NCBI GenBank assembly: GCA_964514585.1
Contig: CAZETU010000002.1
Coordinates: 129,486-193,485, forward strand
Length of the DNA: 64,000 nucleotides
Reading direction: 5' to 3'
From: Candidatus Woesearchaeota archaeon
Lineage (GTDB): Archaea; Nanobdellota; Nanobdellia; Pacearchaeales; GW2011-AR1
Below are positions 6,840-39,263 of this stretch, in pieces. The notes under the pieces were generated by a model, which did no database searches, had not been told where the DNA came from, and worked only from the letters and a program-made list of their open reading frames with translations. The first letter of the stretch is position 1. Each line of letters starts with the position of its first letter. The position numbers were made by a program, and so were the translations under genes.

Positions 6840-6885
6840 CTAGTTTCACCTTAATGTTTTTAAATCTTAATTATTTGGGATTGTT

Positions 6886-7938: not shown

Positions 7939-7977
7939 TATCTAAAAATTTATAATGGGCTTATATGTTGTTTTATT

Positions 7978-8721: not shown

Positions 8722-9836
8722 ATAAGAATTTGATGAAGGTTTATGAGACTGATGCTTCGCAGTTGAAGGGTAGGGCTTTGGATGTGGTTTTCCCGACGAC
8801 GATTATGGAGGTTCGGAATTTTGTTGCTAAGTCTAAGAGGGTTGTTCCGAGGGGCGCTGGGACTGGTTTGAGTGGAGGTTGTGTTCCTCAGCATGGTTTG
8901 GATGTTGTTTTGGATTTATCTAAGTTGACTTCTATTAGTGAATTTGATAAGGAGCGTATGATTGTTGAGGTTGAGGCTGGTGTTATTTTGGATGAGTTGC
9001 AGGCTTATTTGGCTAGGCATGGTTTGGAGTTTCCTGTTAATCCTTCGAGTCATGCGGTTGCTACGATTGGGGGCATGATTGCGACTAATGCTGTTGGGAG
9101 TCGGGCTGTCAAGTACGGGAAGACTTCTGATTGGGTTAAGTGGGTTGAGGTTGTTGACGGGCATGGTAATTTGTATCGTAAGGGTGTGACGGAGCTTTCT
9201 GATTATGCTGGGATGGAAGGGATTACTGGCGTGATTGTTAAGGCTTGTTTGAAATTGTCGCCTTTGAAGAAGAGGACAGCGTCGCTGGTTCCTTTGACTA
9301 GTATTTCTAAAGTTATTGAAGTTGTTAGGGGATTGAAAAGGGATTCTTCGGTTTCGATGATTGAGTTTTTGGATAAGAAAATTTCTAAGGGGCTGGAGAT
9401 GGATGAGAAATATCATTTGCTTATTGAGTATGAGAATGATTCTGGGTTTTTGAAGGGTGAGGAATATGAGGCGGTTTTGGCATTGAGGGATAAGGTTTAT
9501 CCTTTTGCTGCTGGAGAAGGGTATGTTAGGATTGAGGATCCTAAGATTTTGTTGGATAGGTTTGAGAAGTTGATGACTTGGTTGGAGGTGCATGAGATTC
9601 CGGTTTTTGGTCATTTGGGTGTTGGTATACTTCATCCTTGTTTTAATCATAATCAGGAGAAGTTGGTTCCGGAGATGATGAAAGTTGTGAAGCGGCTTAG
9701 TGGGCAAATTACTGGTGAGCATGGGATCGGGATATTGAAGAGGCCTTTTGTCGAGGCTAATGATAAGAAGATTTTGATTAATGTGAAGAAGAGGACGGAT
9801 GTTTTGGATAAATTTAATGTGGGGAAGGTGATATGA
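8718..9836 (+). CDS. FAD-linked oxidase (GlcD / D-lactate dehydrogenase family)
   Basis: PRGAGTGLSGG FAD-binding motif. C-terminal GEHGIG typical of the family. Confidence 0.8.
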   Translation: MNKNLMKVYETDASQLKGRALDVVFPTTIMEVRNFVAKSKRVVPRGAGTGLSGGCVPQHGLDVVLDLSKLTSISEFDKERMIVEVEAGVILDELQAYLARHGLEFPVNPSSHAVATIGGMIATNAVGSRAVKYGKTSDWVKWVEVVDGHGNLYRKGVTELSDYAGMEGITGVIVKACLKLSPLKKRTASLVPLTSISKVIEVVRGLKRDSSVSMIEFLDKKISKGLEMDEKYHLLIEYENDSGFLKGEEYEAVLALRDKVYPFAAGEGYVRIEDPKILLDRFEKLMTWLEVHEIPVFGHLGVGILHPCFNHNQEKLVPEMMKVVKRLSGQITGEHGIGILKRPFVEANDKKILINVKKRTDVLDKFNVGKVI

Positions 9837-10312
9837 GCGAAATAAATTGGAAAGATAAATGTTGGGTAACTACTATTTATTTGGTTAGAGAGGATGGAAA
9901 GCTTTTACTTACATGGAATAAGAATATGAAGACATGGATTCCTGTTGGTGGACATCTTGAATTGGGAGAGACGCCTGAAGAAGCGATTTCTAGAGAAGTA
10001 GAGGAAGAAACGGGGTTTGATTTTGATTTTTTTGATAATGCTTCTTATGAAGATGGTGAAGATGTTAAAATAATTAAACCGTATAGGATTCAGATTGAGA
10101 AAGTTCCTCATCATGGGTCGCATATGAATTTTGTTTTTATGGGTAAGTGTTTGAGTTATTCTGAGCGTGATGAGAATGATGATAATGAAAAATTGAGGTG
10201 GTTTTCTGAGAAAGAATTATTTGAAGAACGAGGAGATTTTTTGGAGAGTGTTTGGAATTTGTCTATTATTGCTGTGAATAAATTTAAGGGGAATCATAAT
10301 GGAAAGATTTAA
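9833..10312 (+). CDS. NUDIX hydrolase
   Basis: Nudix box GGHLELGETPEEAISREVEEETGF. Confidence 0.8.
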   Translation: MSEINWKDKCWVTTIYLVREDGKLLLTWNKNMKTWIPVGGHLELGETPEEAISREVEEETGFDFDFFDNASYEDGEDVKIIKPYRIQIEKVPHHGSHMNFVFMGKCLSYSERDENDDNEKLRWFSEKELFEERGDFLESVWNLSIIAVNKFKGNHNGKI

Positions 10313-23570: not shown

Positions 23571-23685
23571 GTATGTTATGCAATATATATGTTGTGATAT
23601 AGTATATGCGAGTATATAGGTTCTTTGAAATAAAAAATGTATGTTAAGTATATAGTGTAATATAGTATATTGGAGTATATAGGTT
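23571..23685 (+). repeat. two imperfect ~50 bp direct repeats ending in ATATAGTATAT-NNN-GAGTATATAGGTT (orphan promoter-like modules)
   Basis: 23597-23622 atatagtatatgcgagtatataggtt versus 23660-23685 atatagtatattggagtatataggtt. The 13-mer GAGTATATAGGTT recurs at 56890-56902 within the TATA region of the gene starting at 56908. Confidence 0.8.
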
Positions 23686-23830
23686 TGGGCAGAAAAAAAG
23701 GACGGCTGCCTGACGGGGCGACATAGCTACTTTTGATGTCGCTTCCGGTAATGAACTTGATGTCTGTTGCGGTTGCGGTTGATGTTAGTGATGCGATGAC
23801 GATGGCTAGAATGATTGTAAGGTGTTTCAT
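23576..23830 (-). CDS. small secreted protein, probably truncated or fused at the block's left junction (84 aa as read)
   Basis: GAGGAG, then 6 nt, then ATG. N-terminal signal peptide MKHLTIILAIVIASLTSTATA. After about residue 45 the frame runs through a T7 tract into the AT-rich backbone repeats and simply translates them (PIYSNILYYTIY / PIYSHILYHNIY). Confidence 0.35.
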   Translation of the reverse strand: MKHLTIILAIVIASLTSTATATDIKFITGSDIKSSYVAPSGSRPFFLPKPIYSNILYYTIYLTYIFYFKEPIYSHILYHNIYIA

Positions 23831-23863
23831 GGTTTTCTCCTCTTCGAGTTTCGGACTTTTCGT

Positions 23864-23947
23864 TTACCAGGCAAACATACATATGATTGCCCAGATGGTT
23901 ATTACGGTAATAATTGCTATCCTGCAAGTTTCCTTCTTGTGATTCAT
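23864..23947 (-). CDS. micro-ORF, 27-aa single-TM peptide (MNHKKETCRIAIITVITIWAIICMFAW)
   Basis: Not in the track (<60 aa). AGAGGG, then 4 nt, then ATG. Hydrophobic core. Stop TAA at 23864-23866. Confidence 0.35.
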   Translation of the reverse strand: MNHKKETCRIAIITVITIWAIICMFAW

Positions 23948-24002
23948 TTTGCCCTCTTGCAAATTTTTTTGTGGGGTTGATAACGGCACATTACGACTTA
24001 CC

Positions 24003-24054
24003 ATTATATGGTATTAATGATAAATTGAAACATGTCGTTATGTGGGCTTGTCAA
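24003..24054 (-). promoter_or_regulatory. bacterial sigma70-like elements (exact TATAAT at 24008-24003, exact TTGACA at 24054-24049, spacing non-canonical)
   Basis: Both hexamers read on the minus strand between the 24063-24101 hairpin and the micro-ORF at 23947. They are 40 nt apart, so they cannot be one promoter pair. Confidence 0.3.
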
Positions 24055-24062
24055 TAAGGTAA

Positions 24063-24101
24063 GGCCCGCGAGCGGTGTTAGTGATGATTCGCTCGCGGGC
24101 C
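24063..24101 (-). terminator. GC-rich stem-loop just downstream of the 117-aa gene
   Basis: GGCCCGCGAGCG (24063-24074) pairs perfectly with CGCTCGCGGGCC (24090-24101). 12 bp stem, 15 nt loop. On the minus strand it is followed by TTACCTTATT. Confidence 0.5.
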
Positions 24102-24119
24102 TGATGTTGTGGGGGTGGT

Positions 24120-24473
24120 TTAGACTGTGACTGGTTTGCGACGGCGAGACTGGGTCGGTTCTCTGAGGACCGTTATCTTAACGCCACGTTCCTTCTGGAC
24201 GCTTCTGATTTGCCCGAGGGTTTTGCCGGCTCGGAAGTATGGGCCGTATATCTGGAGCAACTCTGTTGTAGCCGATACGGGTGGTTCATGTTTGGCTTCT
24301 GAGTTGTGATCTGTGGCCTGGACGACGACTGAGCAGTCTTCCCATGCTCTGAAAATGGGCATGTGCTCGACCTCCGGGTGGGTGGCTACTCGTTTTTTCA
24401 GGCATTCCAAATCTGTACTCACAATGTGTATGTTCCCGCTTCTTGCTACGAATATTTCTTTGATCGTTTCCAA
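24120..24473 (-). CDS. hypothetical protein (117 aa), TTG start
   Basis: AGGAG, then 8 nt, then TTG. Protein-like composition, unlike the overlapping 71-aa frame starting at 24501. Confidence 0.55.
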   Translation of the reverse strand: METIKEIFVARSGNIHIVSTDLECLKKRVATHPEVEHMPIFRAWEDCSVVVQATDHNSEAKHEPPVSATTELLQIYGPYFRAGKTLGQIRSVQKERGVKITVLREPTQSRRRKPVTV

Positions 24474-24479
24474 TTTTAT

Positions 24480-25436
24480 GCTCCTGACAATCCGTTAACA
24501 TTTCTCCTCCTCAACGTTTCATCTCAACGCAACACTTTTCTCAGAAACCTCCTTTCTGGCTATATTGCCGTTAGCGCTTGTGGGCCTTTCCACCTTTTAT
24601 TTCTTAAGTCTCTTACCCACCAGCTTGCCTTCCTATTTTTCTTTTTGGGTCGCCACCTTCTTCTTGTTCCTATTCTTTCCAGTGGCAACAACAACCCATG
24701 CTCCGACTCCTTACCTTTCATCACTCCATTCCTCCGATGTACTTCCTTTTCTTCTTTGAATCTTTTGAAAGCCCATGAGCGTGATATGAGTAGCCTCATG
24801 GGCTCATAGTGTTCTGGAGCTACTCTTGTCCTTCCTTTGCTATGCTACGCTGCCCGTGTTGCTCGTAAGGAAGCTGCCCTTCTTCGACAAGGTTCTTTCC
24901 TTTCCACCTCCCCTTTTCTGGTAATTTTTGGGGCAGTGTTATTTCTTCTCCTTGCCTTCAGAACTTCAATGAGTGGCGAGTTGCATGTTTTGCATCTGGT
25001 TGTTCTCGCCCTGTGTTCTCTTGTCCCGATGGGGCAATTTCCCTTTTCGTTCGAGCATTCTTTCAGCATAACTAGCGTCCTTTCGCATTCCGTTTCCATT
25101 GCGAGTTTTTTACGCTTTCTCTAGTGCAATCTAGCACTCTGTAGTGATACTCTCCTTTCTGTGCTCATTAATATGGCCGTTCACCGATTGGCCTTTTTTG
25201 GTTTTTTCTTCTTCGGATTCTTTCCGCTCCTAGCTCTTATTTCCGCTTTTGTCAGTGGTCTCTTCTTACACTTTCCTGACACTAGAGCTCCCCTTCAAAT
25301 CCGTTTTCCGTTCTAGTTCTCACTCTTAGTACAATCTAACACCCTTACAATTGACCTCCTTTCGTTATCTATGTTCTTTCTTGTTTTCACGTCCCCTTTT
25401 TGTTTACCTCCTTTCCGGGGTTGATGTTGATATGAA
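24480..25436 (-). other. ~0.95 kb purine-rich (gene strand) segment without a convincing ORF; carries four GAAAGGAG(G/A)-type motifs and a repeated TGTTA..GATTGT motif
   Basis: The plus strand is C+T-rich. ACCTCCTTTC occurs at 24547-24556, 25354-25363 and 25406-25415, and CTCTCCTTTC at about 25150-25159. See findings. Confidence 0.6.
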
Positions 25437-25512
25437 TCGGGGCGGAAGGATTCGAACCTTCGACCTCCAGCTTCTGCTAAGCTGACGCGCTACCAAACTG
25501 CGCTACGCCCCG
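25437..25512 (-). tRNA. tRNA-like gene with a 9-nt anticodon loop (isotype undetermined)
   Basis: Hand fold: CGGGGCG TA GCGC AGTTTGGTA GCGC G TCAGC [TTAGCAGAA] GCTGG AGGTC GAAGG TTCGAAT CCTTC CGCCCCG A. Every arm is canonical except the loop. Confidence 0.7.
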
Positions 25513-25568
25513 GGCTGCTGCGTTATGGTATGTTATTTTATTTGCAGCAGGTGATGCAGATGTTAGTG

Positions 25569-26027
25569 TTATTTTCTTGCTTCCCTTATCGTTAACTCGG
25601 TCATCTTGTATGTTTTGATCGCAATCAGTTTAGCTAAAGAAAGCGATCCGATGAGACCGAGAATGAAGATGTGTAAGGTGATATCTTTTGTGCTCTTGCT
25701 CTTGATTATACTTGGAATCTGGAGCAGCTCTTCTCCCATTCTTTGGTATATTGATGGGATGGACTCGGTACATCCTTGTATGGTAGCCATTAGTCCGTTT
25801 CCTAATCCGTTTATCCCGTTGATGGGGAATAGGATTAGGCTTAATAGTCCGACGAAGCAGAGCGTTCCGATGATTCCTTTTGGAAGCACTGATGCGATTT
25901 TCCACGAGATTATTATGTGAACAATCGCTGTTGCGACGAAGAATGCTTCCTGATTGATTTGTGAGAGTACAATCAGGCTCATGAGTGTTACCGCTGCCAA
26001 AACTCTCTTTATGTTCTCATTAGACAT
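25569..26027 (-). CDS. integral membrane protein (152 aa, about 4 TM)
   Basis: GAAAGGAAGAGG immediately before the ATG. Four long hydrophobic segments. Confidence 0.65.
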   Translation of the reverse strand: MSNENIKRVLAAVTLMSLIVLSQINQEAFFVATAIVHIIISWKIASVLPKGIIGTLCFVGLLSLILFPINGINGLGNGLMATIQGCTESIPSIYQRMGEELLQIPSIIKSKSTKDITLHIFILGLIGSLSLAKLIAIKTYKMTELTIREARK

Positions 26028-26110
26028 CCTCTTCCTTTCAAAATGGGGAAAAGGCGTCCGTGCCTGATTCTCAATCCGTTCCTATAACAACAACGAGAGG
26101 CAAAGAGAAA

Positions 26111-26512
26111 CTATTTCTTGCGCGCAAGGAAGTCCTGGGTGAGGGTCTGGATTTCCTCAGTAGACTTTCCTTGCTCGACGAGAGTCTTGATTAGGGAGGA
26201 TTTTGTTTTGACAATTTTCTCCCTGTGAGCCTGCTCGTTTCTTTCTTTCAAGGCCATTGTTTCTTGTGTGGCCTCGATGTGAGCCTGCTCGTTTCTTTCT
26301 GAGACGGTTCTGTTGAACCGCTCATTGGCTCTGTCGACCATTTCTTGTCCGCCGACAGCTACTTGTGCACCGGCGGTTTCGAGAGCAAGAACCTTGATGC
26401 CGTTTTTGTTGACTGTCAATCCAGAGAATTTGGTGCCTCCGGTTTGACCTGCGCAGCCAGTGAGGGCGGTGATTGCTACGAGTGCTACTGCGATGAGGAT
26501 TTGTCTTTTCAT
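26111..26512 (-). CDS. lipoprotein (133 aa) with a duplicated ERNEQAH segment
   Basis: Start moved to MKRQILIAVALVAITALTGCAG, a signal peptide with lipobox L-T-G-C. The longer track ORF (to 26572) adds an implausible leader. Confidence 0.65.
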   Translation of the reverse strand: MKRQILIAVALVAITALTGCAGQTGGTKFSGLTVNKNGIKVLALETAGAQVAVGGQEMVDRANERFNRTVSERNEQAHIEATQETMALKERNEQAHREKIVKTKSSLIKTLVEQGKSTEEIQTLTQDFLARKK

Positions 26513-26523
26513 CTTGTGAACCC

Positions 26524-26592
26524 TTAAGAATTGTTTCTTAGGTAGATGGTGATTAGCGTGAGGCCAATCCACAACAAAATGTCGTTTCCCAT
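26524..26592 (-). CDS. micro-ORF, 22-aa TM peptide (MGNDILLWIGLTLITIYLRNNS)
   Basis: Not in the track. GAAGGAGAA directly before the ATG, so the spacing is very short. Hydrophobic. Confidence 0.3.
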   Translation of the reverse strand: MGNDILLWIGLTLITIYLRNNS

Positions 26593-26665
26593 TTCTCCTT
26601 CTTTCCTTTGGGTTTCGTTTGTTCCCTTGGGTGCGCCGTAGTAAAAAGCATCACCTTTGAGATAA

Positions 26666-26749
26666 TGATAATAGAAGGAATCGAACCTCCATCTCCCCAC
26701 AGATCTGAATATGAAACGTGGGTGGCCCTACCAATTGGGCGATACTATC
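26666..26749 (-). tRNA. tRNA-like gene (84 nt) with a 19-nt anticodon loop / extended anticodon arm (isotype undetermined)
   Basis: Hand fold: GATAGTA TC GCCC AATTGGTA GGGC C ACCCA [CGTTTCATATTCAGATCTG] TGGGG AGAT GGAGG TTCGATT CCTTC TATTATC A. Confidence 0.6.
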
Positions 26750-26802
26750 TGCATACTTCTTCGTCATTTGGGTTATCTGAACGATGTTGGTTCAGAACGA
26801 TT

Positions 26803-27000
26803 CTAGCTGTTTCTCAACGAGAATGTTGCAGCAGCTAGGGTAATTCCTGCGATGAAACCAGGAACAAGAGCTTTTCTGATTAGTTCAAATCCCTGGAATA
26901 TATCTTGACCTACCGCTTTGCCTAGGTTGCAAAATGCAATCGCGCCAAAGAGTATTGCGATTGCGAACAAACTATATGTTACTTTTTGTTGCGTTCTCAT
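26803..27000 (-). CDS. small membrane protein (65 aa, 2 TM)
   Basis: GAGGAGGG, then 5 nt, then ATG at 27000 (MRTQQKVTYSLFAIAILFGAIAF...). The 131-aa track ORF's N-terminal extension looks non-coding. Confidence 0.55.
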   Translation of the reverse strand: MRTQQKVTYSLFAIAILFGAIAFCNLGKAVGQDIFQGFELIRKALVPGFIAGITLAAATFSLRNS

Positions 27001-27029
27001 TATGTCCCTCCTCGCGTTAAGGTTACTGG

Positions 27030-27224
27030 TTAATTTGTTGTTTTGCGAATCAGGATTCTTCTGATGACTAGGAGCGTTATTACTACTCCTACTCCAAGTA
27101 AGCTCCATCCTTCTTGTTGCATGAAGAGCTTTCTTGTGGCTTCTATTAGGAATATGGAAGCCGCTACTGTGGTTACTTTTGCCAAAACCTCCATCCACTC
27201 TTTTCTGTTTTGTCGTGCGGTCAT
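27030..27224 (-). CDS. small membrane protein (64 aa)
   Basis: GGGGAGAA, then 6 nt, then ATG at 27224 (MTARQNRKEW...). Two hydrophobic segments. Confidence 0.5.
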   Translation of the reverse strand: MTARQNRKEWMEVLAKVTTVAASIFLIEATRKLFMQQEGWSLLGVGVVITLLVIRRILIRKTTN

Positions 27225-27263
27225 CGGCGTTCTCCCCATTTAGTGATGGTTGGTGTTAACAAT

Positions 27264-27316
27264 AAACGTGGAGCCAGCCAGAGCAATGCTCTGTTCCAGA
27301 TGCTGGCTCCACGTTT
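27264..27316 (-). terminator. 15-bp perfect stem-loop followed by TTTATTGTT on the gene strand
   Basis: AAACGTGGAGCCAGC (27264-27278) pairs with GCTGGCTCCACGTTT (27302-27316). The loop contains its own 6-bp hairpin CAGAGC/GCTCTG. A second hairpin lies at 27325-27360. Confidence 0.5.
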
Positions 27317-27428
27317 GGAAGTATCAGATGCTTACCTTTGGTGGTATGAGGTAGCATCTGCGTTGATTGACTGGAGTTAATTCGCTAGTTGTAAATAGTG
27401 TTCAGCCCCGAGCCGTCGCTGTGATGGG

Positions 27429-27650
27429 TTATTCGTTGTTCGGGTCGGTGATTGTGATGGTAGGGGTGTCGTTGATCGTGGTGATTGGCAAGCTCTTTAT
27501 CCCTTCGCAGAGAAGAATAATGGCAATCCCGATGAGAACGAAATTTATCCCACAGGCGATTGCGAAGTTTTTTTCCTTGCCAATGATCATAACTATGCCC
27601 ATGGTTATTATTGTGAATGCGATGATGATTATGATTAGTGTCCAGGTCAT
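27429..27650 (-). CDS. small membrane protein (73 aa, 2 TM)
   Basis: GAGGAAGG, then 4 nt, then ATG at 27650 (MTWTLIIIIIAFTIITMGIVMII...). The 198-aa track ORF upstream part is rejected. Confidence 0.6.
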   Translation of the reverse strand: MTWTLIIIIIAFTIITMGIVMIIGKEKNFAIACGINFVLIGIAIILLCEGIKSLPITTINDTPTITITDPNNE

Positions 27651-27921
27651 AATACCTTCCTCTAATAGAGTGGTGGATTTGGTGAAAACGATAAAACACA
27701 GAACCGGTTTACTAAGTGGCGTGACTGCTTTCGTCAAAGTTGCCGGTGGCTTTGCGCTTGTTGTTGGAGGTGCGAACTGGGCCGTGATGCGGTCGTGTAA
27801 GTGTCGACCTGACCCAGTTCGCGAATGGCCTATCCCTTTGGAAGCGAACTTAGGGAGGATCCTTCTTTGCCCTAACTGTAAGCTAAGGGCCCAGGATTTT
27901 TTCGGCCACCATCGTAATGAA

Positions 27922-28203
27922 TCAGTTGTGGAGCTGAGTGACTGCGGCTTCAATCTTTTCCGGATCGAATTCACACCCCAGCATCTCCTGTCGGATTTTC
28001 TGGGGGTCAAGGCCGCACACTCCATTTATGGCCACCGCTATTTCTGCAAGTGTTGCGTTGCAGCCATTCTCTGAATGGAGTGTTTTGATGGCTACTTTTG
28101 TGGGAAAGGTTGTCATTAGGGTTTGCGCGATTTCCCTTGTTCCTTTCCCTTTCATCTCTTGCGCCATTCGTTGTGCTGCGTTATGCTTTGTTACTATATT
28201 CAT
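27922..28203 (-). CDS. hypothetical protein (93 aa)
   Basis: AAGGGAG, then 5 nt, then ATG at 28203 (MNIVTKHNAAQRM...). The track start at 28269 would overlap the tRNA-like gene. Confidence 0.55.
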   Translation of the reverse strand: MNIVTKHNAAQRMAQEMKGKGTREIAQTLMTTFPTKVAIKTLHSENGCNATLAEIAVAINGVCGLDPQKIRQEMLGCEFDPEKIEAAVTQLHN

Positions 28204-28263
28204 AACGACTCCCTTCTTGTAGGTTTTTTTCTGTGCTAAGATTTTTGTTCCATTTGTGAATAA

Positions 28264-28338
28264 GGCCAACGGAGGGAATCGAACCCTCGACTTCTGCTAT
28301 TGACTAAGCAGCACTCTACCAAACTGAGTTACGTTGAC
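28264..28338 (-). tRNA. tRNA-like gene with an 8-nt anticodon loop (isotype undetermined; GTC/TCA triplets in the loop)
   Basis: Hand fold: GTCAACG TA ACTC AGTTTGGTA GAGT G CTGCT [TAGTCAAT] AGCAG AAGTC GAGGG TTCGATT CCCTC CGTTGGC C. Confidence 0.7.
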
Positions 28339-28388
28339 CCTGCTGCTTACACCCCGTTATTGTCTTCTCTCCCGTGTTTTGGAGAGAT

Positions 28389-28634
28389 TTAAGCTACATG
28401 GAGTTCTGCCCTTGGTTCCATGATTTCTTGGGTGTATTCTATCACAAGGACTTCTTCGGTTTCGATTCTCTCGATTTCCTTGATGACTCTCGAAATTGTT
28501 CGTTCGAGCCCTTCTTTCAACTTTCCTCCTGACTCCCTTCTTATCTCTTGGATCATGATCTCCCGATTTCCTTTTGCTTCGGGTCCGTGTCCAAGTACCT
28601 CTATGGCGATTTTCTCGATTTGTTGATTTCTCAT
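28389..28634 (-). CDS. hypothetical protein (81 aa), E/K/I-rich
   Basis: AGGAGAAG, then 6 nt, then ATG. Confidence 0.55.
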   Translation of the reverse strand: MRNQQIEKIAIEVLGHGPEAKGNREIMIQEIRRESGGKLKEGLERTISRVIKEIERIETEEVLVIEYTQEIMEPRAELHVA

Positions 28635-28681
28635 TTGTTGCTTCTCCTATTGCTTGGTTCTGGTGCGAGCCGATTGTTGAA

Positions 28682-28755
28682 AACCAGCGGAAGGATTTGA
28701 ACCTTCAACCTTAGCTTTACGAAAGCCACGCTCTAACCAGTTGAGCTACGCTGAT
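28682..28755 (-). tRNA. tRNA-Thr (anticodon CGT), canonical
   Basis: ATCAGCG TA GCTC AACTGGTTA GAGC G TGGCT [TTCGTAA] AGCTA AGGTT GAAGG TTCAAAT CCTTC CGCTGGT T. 7-nt loop with T33 and A37. Confidence 0.85.
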
Positions 28756-28768
28756 TACTTGGCTGATT

Positions 28769-29419
28769 CTAGTGATGCAGTGAGGCCACCAACGCAGAGT
28801 TTTCCTGATTTGCTTTTGGCCTCTTCTCTTTCCCTTCCCTTGATTTTTCTATGAGATCGACCAAGGGTTGTATGTCTATGCTCATTTTTTCGGCCCAGCT
28901 TTTTGCGAGCATGATATCTATTCCATCAAAAAGGGGGTCTTGGGTTTTCATAGCCTCTTTGAGAAAATGGAGGACCATCAGCGGAGTTCCCATTGTCTTA
29001 ATCTCTTCTACCTCTTTTGAGATATCGAGACCAAGGCTATCCGCGTGTATTTCCGCTATTATCAGATCGGTTACCCATCCTCTTTCGCTCTTTAGTGCGA
29101 ATTTTCGAGCTTGTTTGAGAGAGGACGTCATTATATTTTGATGCCCAGTTTTTTCGATACCTCTTGTTTCTTCCGAGATATCGAGCCCAGTTTTTTTCGC
29201 AATGTTTTTGGCCAGTTCCAAATAGGTGACATAGATAATATCCCCCTTCGCTGCGAACTTTCGAGCTCCTTGGAGGTACTTGGTTATGGAAATTTGATTT
29301 TCTGTTGGGGCGGAGGTTTCGATGGGTTCTGTGCTTTTTTCCATCTGAGTGGGGGTGCAAATTCCTCCCAGAATCATGCCTATCAAAGCCAGTGTTACGA
29401 TAACTCTTTCGGTATTCAT
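28769..29419 (-). CDS. membrane-anchored or lipoprotein-like protein with three ~45-aa internal repeats (216 aa)
   Basis: N-terminal hydrophobic segment ending GGIC. Repeats: LQGARKFAAKG..GLDISEETRGIEKTG, LKQARKFALKS..GLDISKEVEEIKTMG and a third degenerate copy. Confidence 0.65.
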   Translation of the reverse strand: MNTERVIVTLALIGMILGGICTPTQMEKSTEPIETSAPTENQISITKYLQGARKFAAKGDIIYVTYLELAKNIAKKTGLDISEETRGIEKTGHQNIMTSSLKQARKFALKSERGWVTDLIIAEIHADSLGLDISKEVEEIKTMGTPLMVLHFLKEAMKTQDPLFDGIDIMLAKSWAEKMSIDIQPLVDLIEKSREGKEKRPKANQENSALVASLHH

Positions 29420-29451
29420 TCTCTTTTCCTTAACTAGGGGTTGGCTGTGAA

Positions 29452-29523
29452 AACCAGCGGAAGGATTCGAATCTTCAACCTTAGCTTTACGAAAGCTATG
29501 CTTTATTGTTGAGCCATGTTAGT
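29452..29523 (-). pseudogene. decayed copy of the tRNA-Thr(CGT) gene
   Basis: The 3' 55 nt are nearly identical to 28682-28736, including the TTCGTAA loop. The 5' acceptor and D arm are mutated (2-nt deletion; the acceptor no longer pairs). Confidence 0.6.
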
Positions 29524-29528
29524 ATAAT

Positions 29529-29627
29529 GTAGGACCCGGTTGCAGAGGAAGGAGAAATGCGCTTGGGGCAGCTGTCTCCATTGCGCCCTTGCAATGCTGC
29601 TCTCATGTGAGGAGAGCCGGGTCCTAC
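29529..29627 (-). ncRNA. candidate structured RNA (~99 nt) closed by an 11-bp helix
   Basis: GTAGGACCCGG (29529-29539) pairs with CCGGGTCCTAC (29617-29627). Internal hairpins are CTCTC/GAGAG, ATTGC/GCAAT and GCAGC/GCTGC. The strand is uncertain. Confidence 0.35.
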
Positions 29628-29640
29628 GTCTTGCGGAGAG

Positions 29641-29760
29641 CTAGATTGCGAAGGCTAGGATTGTGGCGAAACTCGCAAGGACTATTGTGACTACGAGTTT
29701 TAGGTTTTGTTCGCCTTCTTCTTCTGGTGGATTGAGACGTTCTACTTGATATCTTTCCAT
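29641..29760 (-). CDS. micro-ORF, 39-aa C-terminal-TM peptide (MERYQVERLNPPEEEGEQNLKLVVTIVLASFATILAFAI)
   Basis: Not in the track. ATG at 29760, TAG at 29641-29643. Weak RBS. The overlapping 62-aa track ORF is in another frame and is Arg/Ser/Thr-rich. Confidence 0.4.
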   Translation of the reverse strand: MERYQVERLNPPEEEGEQNLKLVVTIVLASFATILAFAI

Positions 29761-29869
29761 CTTGTTGTTCTTCTGTTTGGGTTGTTGACGGTGCATTGTG
29801 ACCTACCATCATATAGAATCAATGGTAGGCGGACGGCGAACCGTCTAGTTTGTGGGGTGTGTCGTTAGG

Positions 29870-31777
29870 TTAGTTGTTTTGCTCTTGGAGGAGTTGTTTG
29901 AGTTTTTCTGGATCAATTCTTGAAGGATCCACTCCTCTGAGCATCGTTTCGACGTCTTGGACTTTTTGCACGCGATCGACTTCTTCGTCGGTGATGGGTT
30001 TTGCTGCCTCGTAGCGTGCCTGCTCTGGGTGTTCTGCCCTTAGTTCCAGGGATATGATGTCGAAGGTTGAAACTGTGATTACCTTCTCTCTGGTTTCAGG
30101 GTATGACACCTTGACCATTTCGTCCGGTGCGATTGCAGCCACTTCTGGATTTCTGAGGGAATAGCTTGTTCTGAATATTTTGCTTATCCCTTCGAGACGG
30201 AATCCGTAGACGGCTTGGCCGTTCGTGAGACTTAGAAGATTGACGCTCACGATCCTTCTTGTTAGGTGGAGAATCTTGGCCGGCATAGCTCCAGGGATGT
30301 GTTGATCTTGGCCGGCGGTTGCGATTTTCTGGGCGTAGTTATCTAGGGCTTCTTCTACTGTCGTCCCTTTCGCCTTTAGGGTGTTTGTAATGTCTGCTAC
30401 CGAGTAGCCTATCATTTGGCTTTCTTGGCACATCGGCATGATGTAAGTCAGTCGTCCGTGTATATTGTACGGAACGAATAAAGCTGGGAGTACTCCCGGA
30501 GACTCTGGCCACAAGGCGTTGCCGGCTTGGTAGATTTCGTTTTCGGTTACACCTTGAGTACTGTAGAAGGTTGTTTCTCCTGTGCATGTGTCGCTGACGA
30601 TGAATCCGGTGAGCGCTAGATCGGACTCCATGCTTGTGAAGCCGCTGTACCATTTGGTTCGTTGGCTTTTGTGGTCGTAGACCATATACCAACCTTTGGT
30701 TGGCTGCTGGGATTTGTCGCTTTGCCATATGGTATACATCCAATCGGCGTTTCGGTACCAGCCCCATTTCTTGATGTTGGATTCGAGTACATCTATTGGC
30801 ATTGCCCGATCGACCCATTTCGGAAGCTCATCGATTGAGTGATGTTCATGTTCGCCGGTTACCAAGTTGAAGGCTACGATACCTGTGACTTGGCGGGCAC
30901 TCCAGCCGTGCTTTCTCTCTATCGTTGAGACGGTGTAGTAAGGGTTCCAGTTGTCGTCTACTTCGAAGGTCCAGTCTTCTAGTATAGTGAAGCGGTAACC
31001 TTCAGCGCGTAATTTGCGCTTTGCTTTATATCCCCAGCAGGCGCTATTGACGTACTTGATATGGATTTCCTCGCCCTGGGCATTATGCTGTACGGCCTGT
31101 CCTTCTTTGTAGGGATCTTCGGCCGAGACTCTGAGGAAGCCTGGAACTTGTGGGTCTCTACGCCATGTTTTCCATCCTTGGAATTCTACGGGGTAGATAT
31201 ACCAAAGATGTTGATTAACGAACTGGATGGTGGGTTCTTCCCCGATTTCGTATCTTGAGCCTGGCACGACATTGTTCGGCATCTTGAACTTGCTAAGGGC
31301 CGTTTGTGCCGCTTTGAATGCTCTTTCCGGGGGCACTTGCAGGATGTGAGCGTTGTCGGAGGGGGTAATGACTTCTGCGAGGTTGCCTTCTATGACTTTG
31401 ACTTCGCCGATTAGCCCCGCTTTTTGCTTGGCATTTGTGGCATCCCATGTTCCGGTGATTACAATCCATAATCCCCAGACGAGCAAGAGGATGATGCCGA
31501 GTGCACCACCTGCGCATCCCGCCGTATCTTCATGGTTTGTCAATGTCCCTATAAACCCGCCGATTATGCATCCGATGACAACTGACCAGAAGACGGGGGT
31601 AGGGCCATAGAAGCCGATTGCTCCGAAGTAATAGACGCAGGACAGTATCAACCCATAAATGGCTCCGCCCAAAACTCCTGCGATAATGGTTTTGCCGAAT
31701 TCCTTTTTCGAGCATACTGCTCCGAAGACGGCGGTTGTTGTGACTGTCGCGATACCGACGATCAATGCGATCCACAT
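29870..31777 (-). CDS. large orphan membrane protein (635 aa): N-terminal Gly-zipper-like TM bundle plus a ~520-aa extracytoplasmic domain
   Basis: GAGG, then 7 nt, then ATG. About 4 N-terminal TM helices rich in GxxxG (GGAIYG, GGFIGT, GCAGGALG). The remainder is W/Y-rich and soluble-looking. No family recognised. Confidence 0.8.
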   Translation of the reverse strand: MWIALIVGIATVTTTAVFGAVCSKKEFGKTIIAGVLGGAIYGLILSCVYYFGAIGFYGPTPVFWSVVIGCIIGGFIGTLTNHEDTAGCAGGALGIILLLVWGLWIVITGTWDATNAKQKAGLIGEVKVIEGNLAEVITPSDNAHILQVPPERAFKAAQTALSKFKMPNNVVPGSRYEIGEEPTIQFVNQHLWYIYPVEFQGWKTWRRDPQVPGFLRVSAEDPYKEGQAVQHNAQGEEIHIKYVNSACWGYKAKRKLRAEGYRFTILEDWTFEVDDNWNPYYTVSTIERKHGWSARQVTGIVAFNLVTGEHEHHSIDELPKWVDRAMPIDVLESNIKKWGWYRNADWMYTIWQSDKSQQPTKGWYMVYDHKSQRTKWYSGFTSMESDLALTGFIVSDTCTGETTFYSTQGVTENEIYQAGNALWPESPGVLPALFVPYNIHGRLTYIMPMCQESQMIGYSVADITNTLKAKGTTVEEALDNYAQKIATAGQDQHIPGAMPAKILHLTRRIVSVNLLSLTNGQAVYGFRLEGISKIFRTSYSLRNPEVAAIAPDEMVKVSYPETREKVITVSTFDIISLELRAEHPEQARYEAAKPITDEEVDRVQKVQDVETMLRGVDPSRIDPEKLKQLLQEQNN

Positions 31778-31856
31778 AATTCTACCTCTCTTTCTTGGAA
31801 GTGTGTGTTTTAGTTAGGACGATTGGTGTTATGTCGTTAGTTTGTGGGGGGTGGTG

Positions 31857-32039
31857 CTAAGGCGTCTTCTTTTCGGTGAGAACATGTCTTTTCATAATCC
31901 TCTTTGTTATTGTGTTTTGCCGTTTTGCCGATCCTTTATGCTTGGCTGTGATCAATGCACCAAAAATGCCTGCTGCCATTGCACTTTTTGGTATCAGCCC
32001 TTTTGCTTCTGAGCACCATACGGGGATTTTGTTGCTCAT
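31857..32039 (-). CDS. small basic protein (60 aa) with one hydrophobic segment
   Basis: AAAGGAGAA, then 5 nt, then ATG. Confidence 0.5.
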   Translation of the reverse strand: MSNKIPVWCSEAKGLIPKSAMAAGIFGALITAKHKGSAKRQNTITKRIMKRHVLTEKKTP

Positions 32040-32051
32040 GCCTGTTCTCCT

Positions 32052-32162
32052 TTACCAAAGAAGTATTGTGATGATGACTGGGAACGTGTGATAAGCTCTC
32101 CAGTTTTCTGCGACCTGTAGACAGAAAATCTGGATTACCCACTTATTGGGTTCTTTCTTCAT
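32052..32162 (-). CDS. micro-ORF, 36-aa peptide (MKKEPNKWVIQIFCLQVAENWRAYHTFPVIITILLW)
   Basis: Not in the track. GAGGAGAA, then 6 nt, then ATG at 32162. Its stop lies 12 nt before the next start. First gene of the array. Confidence 0.4.
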   Translation of the reverse strand: MKKEPNKWVIQIFCLQVAENWRAYHTFPVIITILLW

Positions 32163-32203
32163 GCTTGTTTCTCCTCATAGGCTATTCCGTGTTTTATCGT
32201 CGA

Positions 32204-32317
32204 CGAAATACCGTAAATCTGGGGTATTTCGATTGATTTCGCGTTTGCGAAGCTAAGAATTCTTCTTTGAAAAATACCTTATTTCACGAAATTTTTGGTT
32301 TTTCCGTGAGGTATTTT
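32204..32317. promoter_or_regulatory. two inverted-repeat pairs of a GAAATACC-like motif upstream of the block's first gene (operator or leader hairpins)
   Basis: CGAAATACC (32204-32212) with GGTATTTCG (32223-32231). AAAATACCT (32271-32279) with AGGTATTTT (32309-32317), plus inner CACG/CGTG. Confidence 0.4.
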
Positions 32318-32429
32318 CATGTTTTTCTTCCACGTTTTTGTTTGTATCTTGTATATCTAGAATTCAGGCATGAGGCTTGAATTGTTATGTAGTTATTTGT
32401 GGAAGAGGTAATGTATTTGTAAATATAAT

Positions 32430-34310
32430 TTATGATAGGCGGATTAGTTTTTTCCAGCCTTTTTCGTATTTAATCTCTTCAATTTTAATCAATCCTTTTT
32501 CTTCTAATTGTTTTTTTACGTTTGTTCCTTTTCTTGCAGAGAGTCCGATTTGTCGGTATACTTCCACTGTGCTCAAGGAGTGATTAGGTTTTTTTTGCAA
32601 GAATTCCATGAAGACTTGCTCGTCTGCATTCAGACTAATATTATTATGCGAATTTGACTTTTTAAGTGTTACTACTGGGGGGTTTCTAAAACTATCGATT
32701 GCGAGTTTTACATCTTCACTTTTGTAGTTTCCTTGTTCTTTACTTTCTTCTAAAATTCTTTCGATTTCTTGCAATTCTACTCCTGCTTCAATGTATCCTT
32801 TTACAAAATCGTGGAGAGTTTGTTGGACGTGATCTAAGGGAGTTTCTTTTGGTTTTTCTTGGATAGTTTCAACAGGTTTTGGTTTTTCAATTTGTTTATT
32901 GAATTCTGGGTCTACTTTGTTTGCGTATTCTCGGCTTGTCATCATTGCTTGCATTCGGAGTTTAATATCTTCGTCAGAAATATATATGTTTCTTGTTTCT
33001 GAATATGGGACTTCGATTAGGAATGGAGAGTTGTAACGTTCTGAGAGTTTTACGATTGCGCTTCCTACTTGGAGTTGTGAGAAGTAGTGTCGCTTTTCTC
33101 TTAGTTGCATGATGTCGCTTATGTCATTGATATCATCTGGTAATTGTTGTTGAAATGCGATGTGACATGCAGAGTTTCCTTTTACGGTGTCGGAAATTTT
33201 TGAGATATGTTGATCAAGACAGATTAGGCTTGTTCCGTATTCTCGCATTTCTCGGTAAATCATGTCGGTTACTGATTCGTTTGAAAAATTTGTTGGTTTT
33301 TTCAAGAAAATATTATGAGCTTCGTCAACTAAGATTGCGTGATCGAAACCGTGGCTTGCTTGATTTTGTCTTGCTTTTTTTAATTTGTATATGTATGTTA
33401 AAATAAATTCGCAGAAGAATTTTTTTTCTGTGTTTCCTAGGGCATTAAGTTCCATAACTACTTTTTTGTCTAGTAGTTCTTCGACGGTAAATGAGTTTTC
33501 TCCTTTGTAATTTACTGTTTTTCCGAATTCTCCGAATGTCATAACTGTTGCAATTCTTAGAGCTGATTCTAGCCAGCCAGCTTCTCGTCCTTGTCTGGCT
33601 TTATCCATTTTTTCTTCAAGCCGCCATTTGATGTGGTTCCATGTTGGGTAGTTTTCTGAGCCGTTATAGATGCCCCATTCTTTGAAGGATTCGTCTAGGG
33701 TTTCTAGGACGACTTTGTGGACACCGAATGATGCGGAGAAACTTTCTACTAATAGATCTGAAAGTACGTTGATCCATTCTTTTGGCGCGACGCCTTTTGG
33801 GGGTTGATTGATGTTTGTCTTGAATAAATTACTTACTTTTTCTTCGCCGATAGTGAATGCTAAAATATTGTTGTTCTTCGCTATTAGAGGTCTAAATGAT
33901 TTTTTCCAATCAAAGATTAGGAATGATTTGTTTTGGCTACTTAGAGCTTCGATTATTTTGAATGCGAATGTTGTTTTTCCTGATCCTGACATACCTGTGA
34001 CACAGACGTGCCGAGGCCAGTCTTGTTCTCTTAATTTGAATGGGAAAAGTTTTTTACCTGCGTAACTTATATCTGCTAAAGAATATTTTCCGTCGATTAG
34101 CTCTTCTCTTGGTGGTTCTAGTAAAACTTCGTTTCCTAATAGTTTGTTTAGATGTTTTTGGTAGAGTGCGTTAAGAATGTGAACTATTTCGTCTCTTTCT
34201 TCTCTTGAATCTGCTACGGTATACTGAAAATAAATCTCGTCTATTTTTTTCCCAAAGACAGGCCTAAGTTTGTTACATATTTCTTCTATTGTTAGTGGTC
34301 TTTGTATCAT
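32430..34310 (-). CDS. HerA/FtsK-like P-loop ATPase (DUF87-type) with a C-terminal winged-helix domain
   Basis: Walker A VTGMSGSGKTT and Walker B AILVDEAHN. C-terminal STVEVYRQIGLSARKGTNVKKQLEEKGLI resembles a wHTH. Confidence 0.7.
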   Translation of the reverse strand: MIQRPLTIEEICNKLRPVFGKKIDEIYFQYTVADSREERDEIVHILNALYQKHLNKLLGNEVLLEPPREELIDGKYSLADISYAGKKLFPFKLREQDWPRHVCVTGMSGSGKTTFAFKIIEALSSQNKSFLIFDWKKSFRPLIAKNNNILAFTIGEEKVSNLFKTNINQPPKGVAPKEWINVLSDLLVESFSASFGVHKVVLETLDESFKEWGIYNGSENYPTWNHIKWRLEEKMDKARQGREAGWLESALRIATVMTFGEFGKTVNYKGENSFTVEELLDKKVVMELNALGNTEKKFFCEFILTYIYKLKKARQNQASHGFDHAILVDEAHNIFLKKPTNFSNESVTDMIYREMREYGTSLICLDQHISKISDTVKGNSACHIAFQQQLPDDINDISDIMQLREKRHYFSQLQVGSAIVKLSERYNSPFLIEVPYSETRNIYISDEDIKLRMQAMMTSREYANKVDPEFNKQIEKPKPVETIQEKPKETPLDHVQQTLHDFVKGYIEAGVELQEIERILEESKEQGNYKSEDVKLAIDSFRNPPVVTLKKSNSHNNISLNADEQVFMEFLQKKPNHSLSTVEVYRQIGLSARKGTNVKKQLEEKGLIKIEEIKYEKGWKKLIRLS

Positions 34311-34326: not shown

Positions 34327-34740
34327 TTAATCTGTTAGAATTTTTCCAAGCATATCTGCTCTGGACGTCTTTTCGCTTAGTTCTCTGGTTTGATCTCTTA
34401 GTTCTTTTTTCAAAAGTGCGATATCTCTCCAGCATCCTACTCTTTCGTTTAGTTGGAGTTCAGAAATATCTATTTGTTTTTTTCTTAATTCAGCTCTCTC
34501 TCTTGTAAATTCAGAATCATCTTCTCCTTTTGGTGCGTTTTCTAAAAGAAAATTGTGGATTTTTGTTTTCATTTTTTCACCTTCTTTTATGAAGTTTCCA
34601 CTGAGGTTGTTTCTTTCTTTTATTAGCATCCCAATTTCTTCTACGGTCTCTTTTATAGAGTCTACCTTTGCTTTTCCGACAGAATCGAAATTATTTGACG
34701 TATTCCAGGTATTCCCTTCAGGTATTTCGTTATCTTCCAT
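34327..34740 (-). CDS. coiled-coil protein (137 aa)
   Basis: ORF track. Heptad-rich and E/K/L-rich. Lies 16 nt upstream of the ATPase gene on the same strand. Confidence 0.5.
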   Translation of the reverse strand: MEDNEIPEGNTWNTSNNFDSVGKAKVDSIKETVEEIGMLIKERNNLSGNFIKEGEKMKTKIHNFLLENAPKGEDDSEFTRERAELRKKQIDISELQLNERVGCWRDIALLKKELRDQTRELSEKTSRADMLGKILTD

Positions 34741-39192: not shown

Positions 39193-39263
39193 GGCCCCGT
39201 AGGCTAATGGTAGACCTTCTCGTTTACACCGAGATGGCCCAAGTTCGATTCTTGGCGGGGCCA
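39193..39263 (+). tRNA. tRNA-Val (anticodon TAC)
   Basis: GGCCCCG TA GGCT AATGGTA GACC T TCTCG [TTTACAC] CGAGA TGGC CCAAG TTCGATT CTTGG CGGGGCC A. The D stem has one mismatch. Confidence 0.8.

Follow-up and report, generated by a model that had tools for sequence, protein, structure and literature searches.

A probable flexible genomic island upstream of ppsA in a Pacearchaeota chromosome

The locus and its borders

The window analyzed here is a 64,000-nt stretch of contig CAZETU010000002.1, from the GenBank assembly GCA_964514585.1 of a Candidatus Woesearchaeota archaeon. It contains, between the gene for a HerA-like ATPase and ppsA, the gene for phosphoenolpyruvate synthase, an 8.7-kb block (23700..32430, minus strand) of small genes, tRNA-like genes and one large membrane protein gene, and our analysis suggests that this block is probably the genome's own version of a flexible (replacement-type) genomic island at a fixed slot upstream of ppsA. 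A first-pass annotation of the sequence had described the block as bacterial or phage-style genes inserted in an archaeal backbone, and had offered a real cross-domain acquisition, a remnant of a larger element and an assembly artefact as explanations. The window has a G+C content (GC) of 35-43% over the 64 kb. The genes flanking the block include those for ribosomal proteins L35Ae and L10e, a class-Ic aminoacyl-tRNA synthetase and ppsA, whose closest named homologues (70-79% amino acid (aa) identity) come from Candidatus Pacearchaeota, Nanoarchaeota and 'archaeon' bins. Because both the flanking gene content and the ppsA homologues are archaeal, the backbone is, judged from its genes, a DPANN (Pacearchaeota) chromosome.

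Towards ppsA, nucleotide homology to related genomes is lost at about 23,699-23,703, and towards the HerA-like gene at 32,443. We set the limits of the island at 23,700 and 32,430 because the DNA homology to relatives stops there, and the GC and tetranucleotide profiles were used alongside. On the left lies ppsA itself (20933..23524, minus strand; 863 aa), recognized by the Pfam domains PPDK_N, PEP-utilizers and PEP-utilizers_C. On the right, also on the minus strand, lies a gene for a HerA/FtsK-superfamily ATPase (DUF87) with a C-terminal winged-helix part (32430..34310), which gives a weak Pfam DUF87 match, further weak matches to the models of HerA, mad8, CedD (a DNA-translocating ATPase) and TraC, and 72% aa identity to its copy in the related genome L032. 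A DNA-transfer or defence role for this protein beside a variable island is possible from its sequence matches. A gene for a 137-aa coiled-coil-like protein (34327-34740 in the window) always precedes the HerA-like gene.

The block is genuine and not an assembly error. The same genes were found on contigs of the ENA assemblies ERZ27315495, ERZ27315522, ERZ27315768, ERZ27315822 and ERZ27315536, of the JGI assemblies 3300005932 and 3300025669 and of the Logan assemblies SRR5581655 and SRR7528417, and those of these contigs that were long enough spanned one or both junctions. The junctions are identical in at least seven assemblies from different samples and three pipelines (ENA, JGI and Logan), and in one short contig that was aligned the left junction is the same base by base. 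The GC step is abrupt at both edges, as a chimera of bacterial and archaeal reads would have it, but the chance of such a chimera is practically nil: both junctions recur in at least seven samples, the backbone of the window is found assembled in contigs of up to 448 kb, and two archaeal contigs from relatives (L014 and L030) hold a homologue of the large membrane protein in the same slot. The assembly-artefact option was rejected on these grounds. The repeat search of the window found no direct repeats at the ends of the block, which bears out the earlier statement that flanking direct repeats are lacking.

The slot in related genomes

The HerA-like gene and ppsA were both seen as flanks of the slot in the window, in L032 and in L037/L038, and in this sub-lineage the slot lies between these two genes. 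In L032 and L037/L038 the order is L35Ae, L10e, UPF0020, the 137-aa gene and the HerA-like gene, and 3-4 kb of small, unrelated genes separate the last of these from ppsA. Contig L014 carries a homologue of the 635-aa membrane protein (55% identity) followed by the junction repeat and by ppsA, the N-terminal part of which has 79% DNA identity to that of the window. Contig L030 carries another homologue (43% identity) directly downstream of its HerA-like orthologue, as in the window, and this orthologue has 58% identity over the ATPase part and the same C-terminal winged-helix part. In at least eight related genomes the slot is occupied by one-directional small-gene arrays that differ from genome to genome. 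In L033, L034, L041 and L042 at least 10 kb of one-directional small open reading frames (ORFs) lie upstream of ppsA, and Shine-Dalgarno (SD) sites precede 61-80% of the starts in these arrays vs 0-22% downstream; L044 has no such array upstream of ppsA.

The content of the slot is another matter. What the window shares with its relatives is limited to the 635-aa gene and one N-terminal fragment, shared only with L014 and L030; nothing was found in common between the island genes of the window and the islands of L032-L044, and none of the filled slots of the relatives contained an integrase. The first-pass annotation had reasoned that a block which is core and syntenic in related archaea would speak against an insertion. 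The slot is indeed syntenic across Pacearchaeota, but its content is replaced; therefore the block is part of a lineage-wide flexible island and not a one-off insertion. By prediction the island is enriched in membrane or secreted proteins: a hydropathy scan, which is a crude predictor, found a membrane or signal-like segment in 64% of the block proteins vs 18% of the backbone proteins, and in the islands of relatives the corresponding values were 41-91% vs 0-17%.

Several genes in these sister islands are of bacterial type, including one with a pilin-like N-terminus and Glu at +5. Four Pacearchaeota islands encode CsrA (L032 8668-8868, L033 8695-8880, L037 8556-8723 and L038 8890-9057), about 1.1-1.3 kb upstream of ppsA and with a score of 95.7 bits vs the NCBIfam equivalog cut-off of 73. 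CsrA is a bacterial regulator that binds GGA/SD regions, and was unexpected among the SD-led genes of an archaeon. The L030 contig encodes at 6411-10231 three paralogous PEP-CTERM-type secreted proteins, a PilX_N/DUF7305 protein and a multihaem c-type cytochrome, and the genes for all of these are led by a near-identical TTGAAAGGAG. Near ppsA in two different islands (L014 10790-11844 and L034 9367-9884), one small ORF after another is followed by a terminator-like hairpin; these repeated hairpins are made up of an A-tract, a GCCC/GGAC stem, the conserved loop TCTTCRT..TTTGAAT and a T-tract.

The 635-aa membrane protein

The largest gene of the island (29870..31777, minus strand) encodes a 635-aa membrane protein that was assigned to a family of the Candidate Phyla Radiation (CPR) on the basis of full-length homologues and was also modelled with AlphaFold. 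Its homologues (P0002-P0032) align at 35-55% identity over 91-100% of the length, and the protein keeps all 48 residues that are invariant in the family; going by its sequence it is probably functional. Among 185,579 species-representative genomes the full-length relatives are found almost only in Patescibacteria (CPR), where they are spread over many classes, with hits in Komeilibacteria, Saccharimonas, SR1, Paceibacterota, Magasanikiibacteriota, Falkowbacteria, Nomurabacteria and other Patescibacteria, and with weaker hits in one Cloacimonadota bin and in Clostridium oryzae. The CPR genes are chromosomal and lie beside secE-nusG-rplK-rplA or fur/nifU. A neighbour-joining tree places the window and L014 sequences together within the CPR spread and the L030 sequence beside a CPR sequence. 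Because the relatives are almost only from CPR and the archaeal copies nest among them, a transfer of this gene from CPR to an archaeon is well supported by the sequence comparisons. The cross-domain acquisition proposed earlier therefore holds for this gene; it does not hold for the block as a whole, which is not a contiguous bacterial or phage fragment.

The AlphaFold model (predicted local distance difference test score, pLDDT, of 81.7) contains four N-terminal membrane helices, a beta-rich outer domain and an OB-fold-like part. A global structural match in the PDB was not found, and the Foldseek result was limited to a local OB-fold match, to LysRS N-domains, at a template modelling (TM) score of about 0.1; a sequence-profile search of the PDB, Pfam and NCBIfam were all without a match, and the family had none in IMG/VR. 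Distant relatives (25-28% identity over 50-80% of the length) occur on Firmicutes plasmids, one of them annotated as DUF3981, and others (22-26%) occur in 11 phage records, in the accessory regions of temperate Lactobacillus and Enterococcus phages. The Pfam DUF3981 model (PF13139) did not match the window protein or 18 members of its family; only the distant Bacillus homologue matches it. In a Komeilibacteria contig (L013 2542-3945) a reverse transcriptase and bAvd, the hallmark pair of a diversity-generating retroelement, lie about 6 kb from a gene of the 635-aa family.

Composition and expression signals

The GC content per kb rises to 44-50% at 24-32 kb, vs 35-39% in the flanks, and GC at third codon positions (GC3) is 44-62% in the block ORFs (one is at 36%) vs 31-36% in the adjacent minus-strand backbone genes. 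The first-pass annotation had called the composition of the block balanced by comparison with C-poor, G+T-rich coding strands in the flanks. The raised GC agrees with this; the skews give no contrast with the immediate flanks, and the whole plus strand of the window is G+T-rich. The block combines a GC skew close to zero with a negative AT skew, as do the minus-strand neighbours at 20-23.5 and 32.4-39 kb. Because the neighbouring minus-strand genes share these skews, the contrast comes down to GC percentage, and GC/AT skew was rejected as a block-specific feature. Symmetrised tetranucleotide profiles set the block apart, yet they also set the whole minus-strand stretch at 20-40 kb apart from the rest.

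The skews of the window deserve a separate remark. GC skew is +0.4 to +0.6 over plus-strand genes and about 0 to +0.1 over minus-strand genes (positions 1-64000), AT skew is negative throughout the 64 kb, and the plus strand is G+T-rich regardless of gene orientation, with no skew switch. This points to an unusually strong replication-type strand bias on top of purine-rich coding strands.

Expression signals separate the block from the backbone clearly. An SD site was called where the duplex energy with a generic anti-SD tail was ≤ -6 kcal/mol. By this measure 10/13 block starts have an SD site vs 7/38 backbone starts (Fisher p = 0.0003), while a TATA-like box at -38..-20 precedes 18/38 backbone starts and 0/14 block starts (p = 0.0009). 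The motifs GGAG, GAGG and AGGAG precede the starts for which AAGGAGG-like sites had been listed, so that this claim, the TATA-type upstream regions noted outside the block and the placing of all ORFs and five tRNA-like genes on the minus strand (all plausible ORFs and five tRNA-model hits lie there) agree with our results. The exact TATAAT and TTGACA hexamers that had been taken as a bacterial sign do not: sigma-70-type hexamer pairs are at chance level in the block (12 vs 11.1 ± 3.0 expected), and sigma-70 promoters were rejected as a mark of bacterial origin.

GC-rich hairpins after stop codons, another of the earlier observations, are present at two places, but most terminator-like matches lie on the non-coding strand and only these two strong hairpins are 3' of ORFs. 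One is a perfect 13-bp GC-rich terminator-like hairpin (24062..24102, minus strand; inverted repeat I8) located 18 nt past the stop of the ORF at 24120-24473. The other (27264..27316, minus strand; inverted repeat I3) is a perfect 15-bp hairpin with a nested 6-bp hairpin, followed by TTTATTGTT, and is also terminator-like. At the opposite end of the island, a leader (32163..32429, minus strand) separates the stop of the HerA-like gene from the first island ORF. Our reading of this sequence (inverted repeats I25 and I10) gave an AT-rich TATA-like stretch at about 32415-32437, repeated GAAATACC motifs and a hairpin at 32204-32231, and we infer that the leader is a candidate island promoter.

Because the SD signal is common to the islands of relatives whatever their GC, it need not imply a bacterial origin, and it fits best with polycistronic expression in an otherwise leaderless archaeon. 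One could go further and regard the block as a native archaeal operon without foreign DNA, in which the SD sites belong to internal cistrons and the GC content is specific to the genes. Operon-internal genes of the backbone also have G-rich SD-like motifs (e.g. at the starts 8718 and 9833), the islands of L042, L033 and L034 are SD-led without a GC shift, and wherever it occurs the 635-aa family has a higher GC than the sequence around it. We find this explanation quite improbable all the same, since the 635-aa family is almost confined to CPR among the species-representative genomes with the archaeal copies nested inside, GC3 is 10-25 points above that of the neighbours in nearly all block ORFs, the sister islands contain bacterial hallmark genes (CsrA, PEP-CTERM and the pilin-like N-terminus) and the content is not conserved between relatives.

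tRNA-like genes and structured RNA elements

Five tRNA-like genes had been reported in the block. Five hits to the tRNA model were obtained, but one of them is a degenerate copy and, apart from this copy, one has a canonical anticodon loop. In four genes the acceptor, D and T arms are well kept, with 44-63 bits against Rfam RF00005, and the fifth (40.8 bits) has a broken acceptor stem; a 7-nt anticodon loop with U33 and a purine at position 37 is found only in the Thr(CGU) gene and in its broken-stem pseudo-copy. All are on the minus strand. The 'Cys-GCA' tRNA-like gene (25437..25512; Rfam tRNA 60.4 bits, also called by ARAGORN) folds into a good cloverleaf, the anticodon loop of which has 9 nt or, alternatively, 7 nt including A33; the gene has C1-G72 and the discriminator A73. 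The next gene (26666..26749; 44.4 bits) has a 17-nt anticodon loop, which ARAGORN, run with its intron option, reads as Glu(UUC) with a 7-nt loop and a 10-nt insert after position 38. The 'Thr-AGU' gene (28263..28339; 50 bits, also called by ARAGORN) can be folded with an anticodon loop of 8 nt or with one of 7 nt, in which case position 37 is C and the stem is mismatched. The Thr(CGU) gene (28681..28756; 63.4 bits) has the canonical 7-nt anticodon loop and an unusual A1-U72 pair. Finally, the pseudo-tRNA (29452..29523; repeat D2) is a degenerate copy of Thr(CGU) with mismatched pairs and a broken acceptor stem, 91% identical to it over 58 nt of the 3' part. Both members of this pair, the only tRNA duplicate of the block, are internal to it and separated by 770 nt, and the intact gene is the downstream one.

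The pseudo-tRNA is immediately preceded by a structured element of about 100 nt with a perfect 11-bp closing stem (29529..29627, minus strand; inverted repeat I13). Its fold energy is -43.7 kcal/mol (z = -3.6 vs shuffled sequences) and it had no match in Rfam. Upstream of the Cys-like tRNA, positions 25516-25542 are a degenerate copy (repeat D8) of the first 27 nt of the ORF for a 93-aa protein (28174-28200), start codon included, and this copy suggests a past rearrangement at the tRNA-like genes.

Odd tRNA genes are found in the islands of relatives too, such as one in L032 with a 6-nt anticodon loop. The L014 island contains a well-formed tRNA (9296-9367; 60.6 bits) with a CUA, amber-reading anticodon and a pyrimidine at position 37. 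The L038 island contains two extra Val(UAC) genes (7574-7646 and 8261-8332), the sequences of which are unlike the backbone copy at 248-318; that backbone copy is the orthologue of the Val gene of the window (39193-39263). The tRNA-like genes of the island would not serve in normal decoding. They may be left over from captured DNA; alternatively, they may be RNase P/RNase Z processing sites at which a long transcript would be cut. The second possibility would account for the retention of the acceptor, D and T arms alongside anticodon loops that range from 6 to 17 nt.

The remaining ORFs and the question of mobility

The other ORFs of the island, all on the minus strand, are described here in the order in which they lie from the HerA-like gene to ppsA. 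An ORF of 36 aa (32052..32162) comes first in the island and is followed by one of 60 aa (31857..32039); both were read together with an SD site. Past the 635-aa gene is a 51-aa ORF with a C-terminal hydrophobic segment (29641..29796), a weak call of the ORF scan. The second-largest block ORF (28769..29419) encodes a 216-aa protein with an N-terminal hydrophobic segment and three repeats of about 50 aa, as seen in a homologue search and pairwise alignment. It is followed by an 81-aa charged soluble ORF (28389..28634; ORF scan), the 93-aa soluble ORF (27922..28203) with weak helix-turn-helix-like hits in the Pfam scan, a 73-aa hydrophobic ORF with two apparent membrane helices (27429..27650) and a 65-aa hydrophobic ORF with two apparent helices and the strongest SD of the block, GAGGAGGG (26803..27000), the last two as read from their sequences. 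The 133-aa ORF at 26111..26512 is lipoprotein-like, with an LTGC lipobox and a coiled-coil-like tail that contains an internal 54-nt repeat (repeat D6). Two Cys-terminated signal peptides had been proposed for the block; the LTGC lipobox is the one that stands, and ILGGIC in the 216-aa protein (28769-29419) is not a canonical lipobox. A 152-aa ORF (25569..26027) has predicted membrane segments in the set-level hydropathy scan, about four of them by reading.

The 216-aa protein belongs to a repeat family with about 40 representative homologues. All three of the homologue contexts examined (L052, L053 and L054) are DPANN-like archaeal chromosomes, with neighbouring genes for archaeal-type L10/P0, eIF-1A, S8e, L37e, LSM, thermosome and Hjc, and one homologue gene has a TATA box at leaderless distance. 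These contexts are a further point in favour of a native archaeal operon. The cluster look-up gave no names for the family and the Pfam scans of its homologues gave sub-threshold noise only. In two of the three archaeal contigs a tyrosine recombinase gene (L052 1827-2657; L054 10561-11391) lies 3-5 kb from the homologue. The remaining ORFs, the truncated gene described below aside, had no relatives detected in the family scans or in the related islands.

Parts of the block are decayed. About 1 kb (24480..25430, minus strand) has no credible coding-strand ORF in the SD-anchored scan (repeat D14 lies here): its ORFs are of ≤ 54 aa, with the exception of a 71-aa ORF at the edge (24286-24501), and orphan SD-like motifs, GAAAGGAGGT, occur at 25394-25415 and 25342-25363. 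This stretch probably consists of decayed genes. A 117-aa soluble ORF from the ORF scan follows (24120..24473; GC3 56%), with a TTG start and an alternative ATG at 24362 with a strong SD; no homologue was found for it. At the edge itself is a truncated gene (23576..23830), identified in the alignment with L014, that encodes a signal peptide and about 20 further residues and then runs through the island edge into backbone repeats. Residues 2-41 match the N-terminus of a 246-aa protein of L014 (36% identity, pairwise E = 2e-4). With this N-terminus kept and backbone homology running from about 23,700, the earlier suggestion that the leftmost ORF was cut at the junction is confirmed. The repeats into which it runs are two 46-nt AT-rich copies, 63 nt apart (23577..23685; repeat family D3), with a 26-nt core of which the window has exactly 2 copies vs 0 expected by chance. 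Because the homology begins at about 23,700, they belong to the conserved upstream region of ppsA and hence to the backbone. An AT-rich repeat is kept upstream of ppsA in L014 (11838-11886), L033 (9724-9963) and L034 (9874-9917), with the core ATATAGTATATKSGAGTATATAGGTT, and the repeat pair may be a regulatory or promoter element of ppsA.

The statement that the block has no mobility genes is borne out by our scans. Integrase, transposase, replication, capsid and terminase domains were absent from ten ORFs searched with Pfam and PHROGs, the stop-to-stop segments of ≥ 45 aa on both block strands contained 0 Pfam families, and no integrase was found among the called flank genes. BLAST searches of phage records gave no match for the block DNA or for eight smaller ORFs (216-93 aa), and the likeness to the tRNA regions of large phages that had been noted goes with no PHROG match and no viral match for the block as a whole. 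A phage or prophage was rejected for lack of PHROG, phage-record and IMG/VR matches (the distant phage relatives of the 635-aa protein aside) and of a viral hallmark domain in any frame. A defence island was rejected as well, PADLOC being blank for the nine block proteins scanned.

The earlier suggestion of a remnant applies to parts of the block only, namely the truncated ORF, the pseudo-tRNA and the 1 kb without an ORF at 24.48-25.43 kb. A broader version would hold that the whole block is made of decayed remnants of integrative elements (a provirus or plasmid) that entered at tRNA genes and were later stripped of their integrase and core genes. A comparison can be made with the 'gene capture' known beside tRNA genes in Sulfolobus chromosomes. 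The five tRNA-like genes, with the 58-nt duplicate of the Thr(CGU) 3' part among them, the ORF-start relic beside the Cys-like tRNA, the truncated and decayed genes, the extra tRNA genes in the islands of relatives and the distant relatives of the 635-aa protein in temperate Lactobacillus and Enterococcus phages and on Firmicutes plasmids are all in keeping with it. We nevertheless consider it unlikely, as no frame encodes an integrase, replication or structural domain and the block is not bounded by direct repeats, and as integration would have left the partial tRNA copy downstream of the intact gene and not, as here, on its upstream side. The lack of phage matches also counts against it, the phage relatives of the 635-aa family being distant, as do the chromosomal position of the close relatives in CPR and the fact that the slot is filled in many relatives, none with an integrase.

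A one-directional array of short, promoterless, SD-led ORFs, hypervariable at a fixed site, with one cross-domain gene and with hairpins 3' of some ORFs, also recalls an integron-type cassette array without an integrase (a cluster of attC sites lacking integron-integrases, CALIN), the form in which archaeal integrons are mostly reported (PMC9668308). Such an array is very improbable here. A core-motif scan for pairs of RYYYAAC and GTTRRRY, 40-150 nt apart with complementary R boxes, found 0 sites on either strand; the two strong hairpins are perfect GC-rich stems with T-rich tracts and without AAC/GTT cores, unlike the imperfect attC; most intergenic spacers have no hairpin; and the all-frame Pfam scan found no IntI-like domain. 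An integron or CALIN was rejected on the strength of the attC and IntI results.

Origin and working of the island

The interpretation that we favour, and hold to be probably correct, is the flexible, replacement-type island upstream of ppsA introduced at the outset. From its sequences the island is a mosaic of one CPR-derived gene, one gene of a family seen in DPANN-like archaeal chromosomes, several orphans, extra tRNA-like genes and decayed stretches. This island type is a sink for accessory genes of mixed origin and not a bacterial fragment. Transcription would start at the edge nearest the HerA-like gene and run towards ppsA to give one or a few long leadered transcripts, each cistron would be translated by way of its own SD site, and the two hairpins and a T7 run at the ppsA edge would provide the transcript ends. 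Turnover of the content could take place by recombination in the conserved flanks together with piecemeal gain, duplication and decay, and the products would diversify the cell surface of an episymbiotic archaeon.

Several observations weigh against the flexible-island interpretation. The rise in GC is specific to the islands of the window and L014, being absent from those of L042, L033 and L034, and since genes of the 635-aa family exceed their surroundings in GC in CPR genomes too, part of the GC signal of the block is intrinsic to this gene. The tree of the 635-aa family is a neighbour-joining tree only and is poorly resolved, and no donor was traced for the orphan ORFs. Every contig with the exact island is identical, so that variation was seen between species-level relatives only and none was observed within the population. 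The anti-SD sequence was an assumed one, the 3' tail of the host 16S rRNA lying outside the window. The operon, the promoter and the processing steps are ones that we infer from the sequence.

A more speculative idea goes beyond the flexible island. Pacearchaeota may hold a dedicated platform for gene capture and expression at a fixed site beside the DNA-translocase-like HerA ATPase, in which DNA of any origin, including that of co-resident CPR, would be stacked in one direction without an integrase or attC and expressed as long SD-translated transcripts, with the tRNA-like elements serving only as RNase P/Z cut sites and with a captured bacterial CsrA that would regulate expression in some members by binding the SD regions. 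If the tRNA-like elements were solely cut sites, the drift of the anticodon loops between 6 and 17 nt would be explained. We regard this idea as something of a long shot.

A life attached to other cells and a tiny genome are ascribed to both DPANN archaea and CPR bacteria, and how these organisms gain and vary surface functions is poorly known. The locus described here, taken as a flexible island, is a concrete and repeatedly observed site of envelope-gene swapping in a Pacearchaeota lineage, with at least one gene from CPR. It also shows within one genome a clean split between leaderless backbone genes and SD-led island genes. This split makes the expression of foreign genes and a possible RNA-processing role of the tRNA-like genes testable with existing metatranscriptomes. 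Cross-domain transfer and flexible islands are already known, and the value of the locus lies in a well-defined example with unusual tRNA-like genes, not in a new principle.

Comparison with known systems

A literature search found nothing specific on this locus or on SD-led islands in DPANN archaea. The comparisons that follow are with systems that resemble the island in part. The tRNA regions of large phages likewise have tRNA genes among tiny one-strand ORFs with SD sites, but the block has no phage gene, its chromosomal flanks are syntenic in relatives and its tRNA-like genes are mostly non-canonical. Integrated elements next to tRNA genes, including archaeal 'gene capture', are similar in having tRNA genes and partial copies within foreign, decaying genes. 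The block differs from them in lacking integrase halves and att repeats and in having its partial copy on the wrong side, and its tRNA-like genes are full cloverleaves with altered anticodon loops instead of 3' fragments.

Integrons and CALINs, mostly the latter, have been described in archaea including Nanoarchaeota (PMC9668308). They share with the block the one-directional arrays of short ORFs and the character of a hypervariable cross-domain platform; the block is unlike them in having no attC by the core-motif scan, no IntI and tRNA-like genes among its ORFs. At the level of single proteins, the DUF3981 proteins of Firmicutes plasmids and temperate phages are like the 635-aa protein, and the Bacillus one also has an N-terminal membrane region followed by a large domain, but the Pfam DUF3981 model fails on the 635-aa protein and its CPR relatives.

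Close parallels are the flexible ('replacement') islands of free-living prokaryotes, such as those for cell-envelope genes in Prochlorococcus, Alteromonas and Haloquadratum. The present island differs from these in its DPANN host, in its aberrant tRNA-like genes and at least one cross-domain gene, in the change from a leaderless TATA layout to SD-led translation for the island genes (SD at 10/13 starts) and in that its variation is known between species-level relatives only and not within a population. It agrees with them in occupying a fixed slot between conserved genes, in having unrelated content among relatives without requiring an integrase, in the deviating composition (in this window) and in the enrichment of envelope and secreted proteins.

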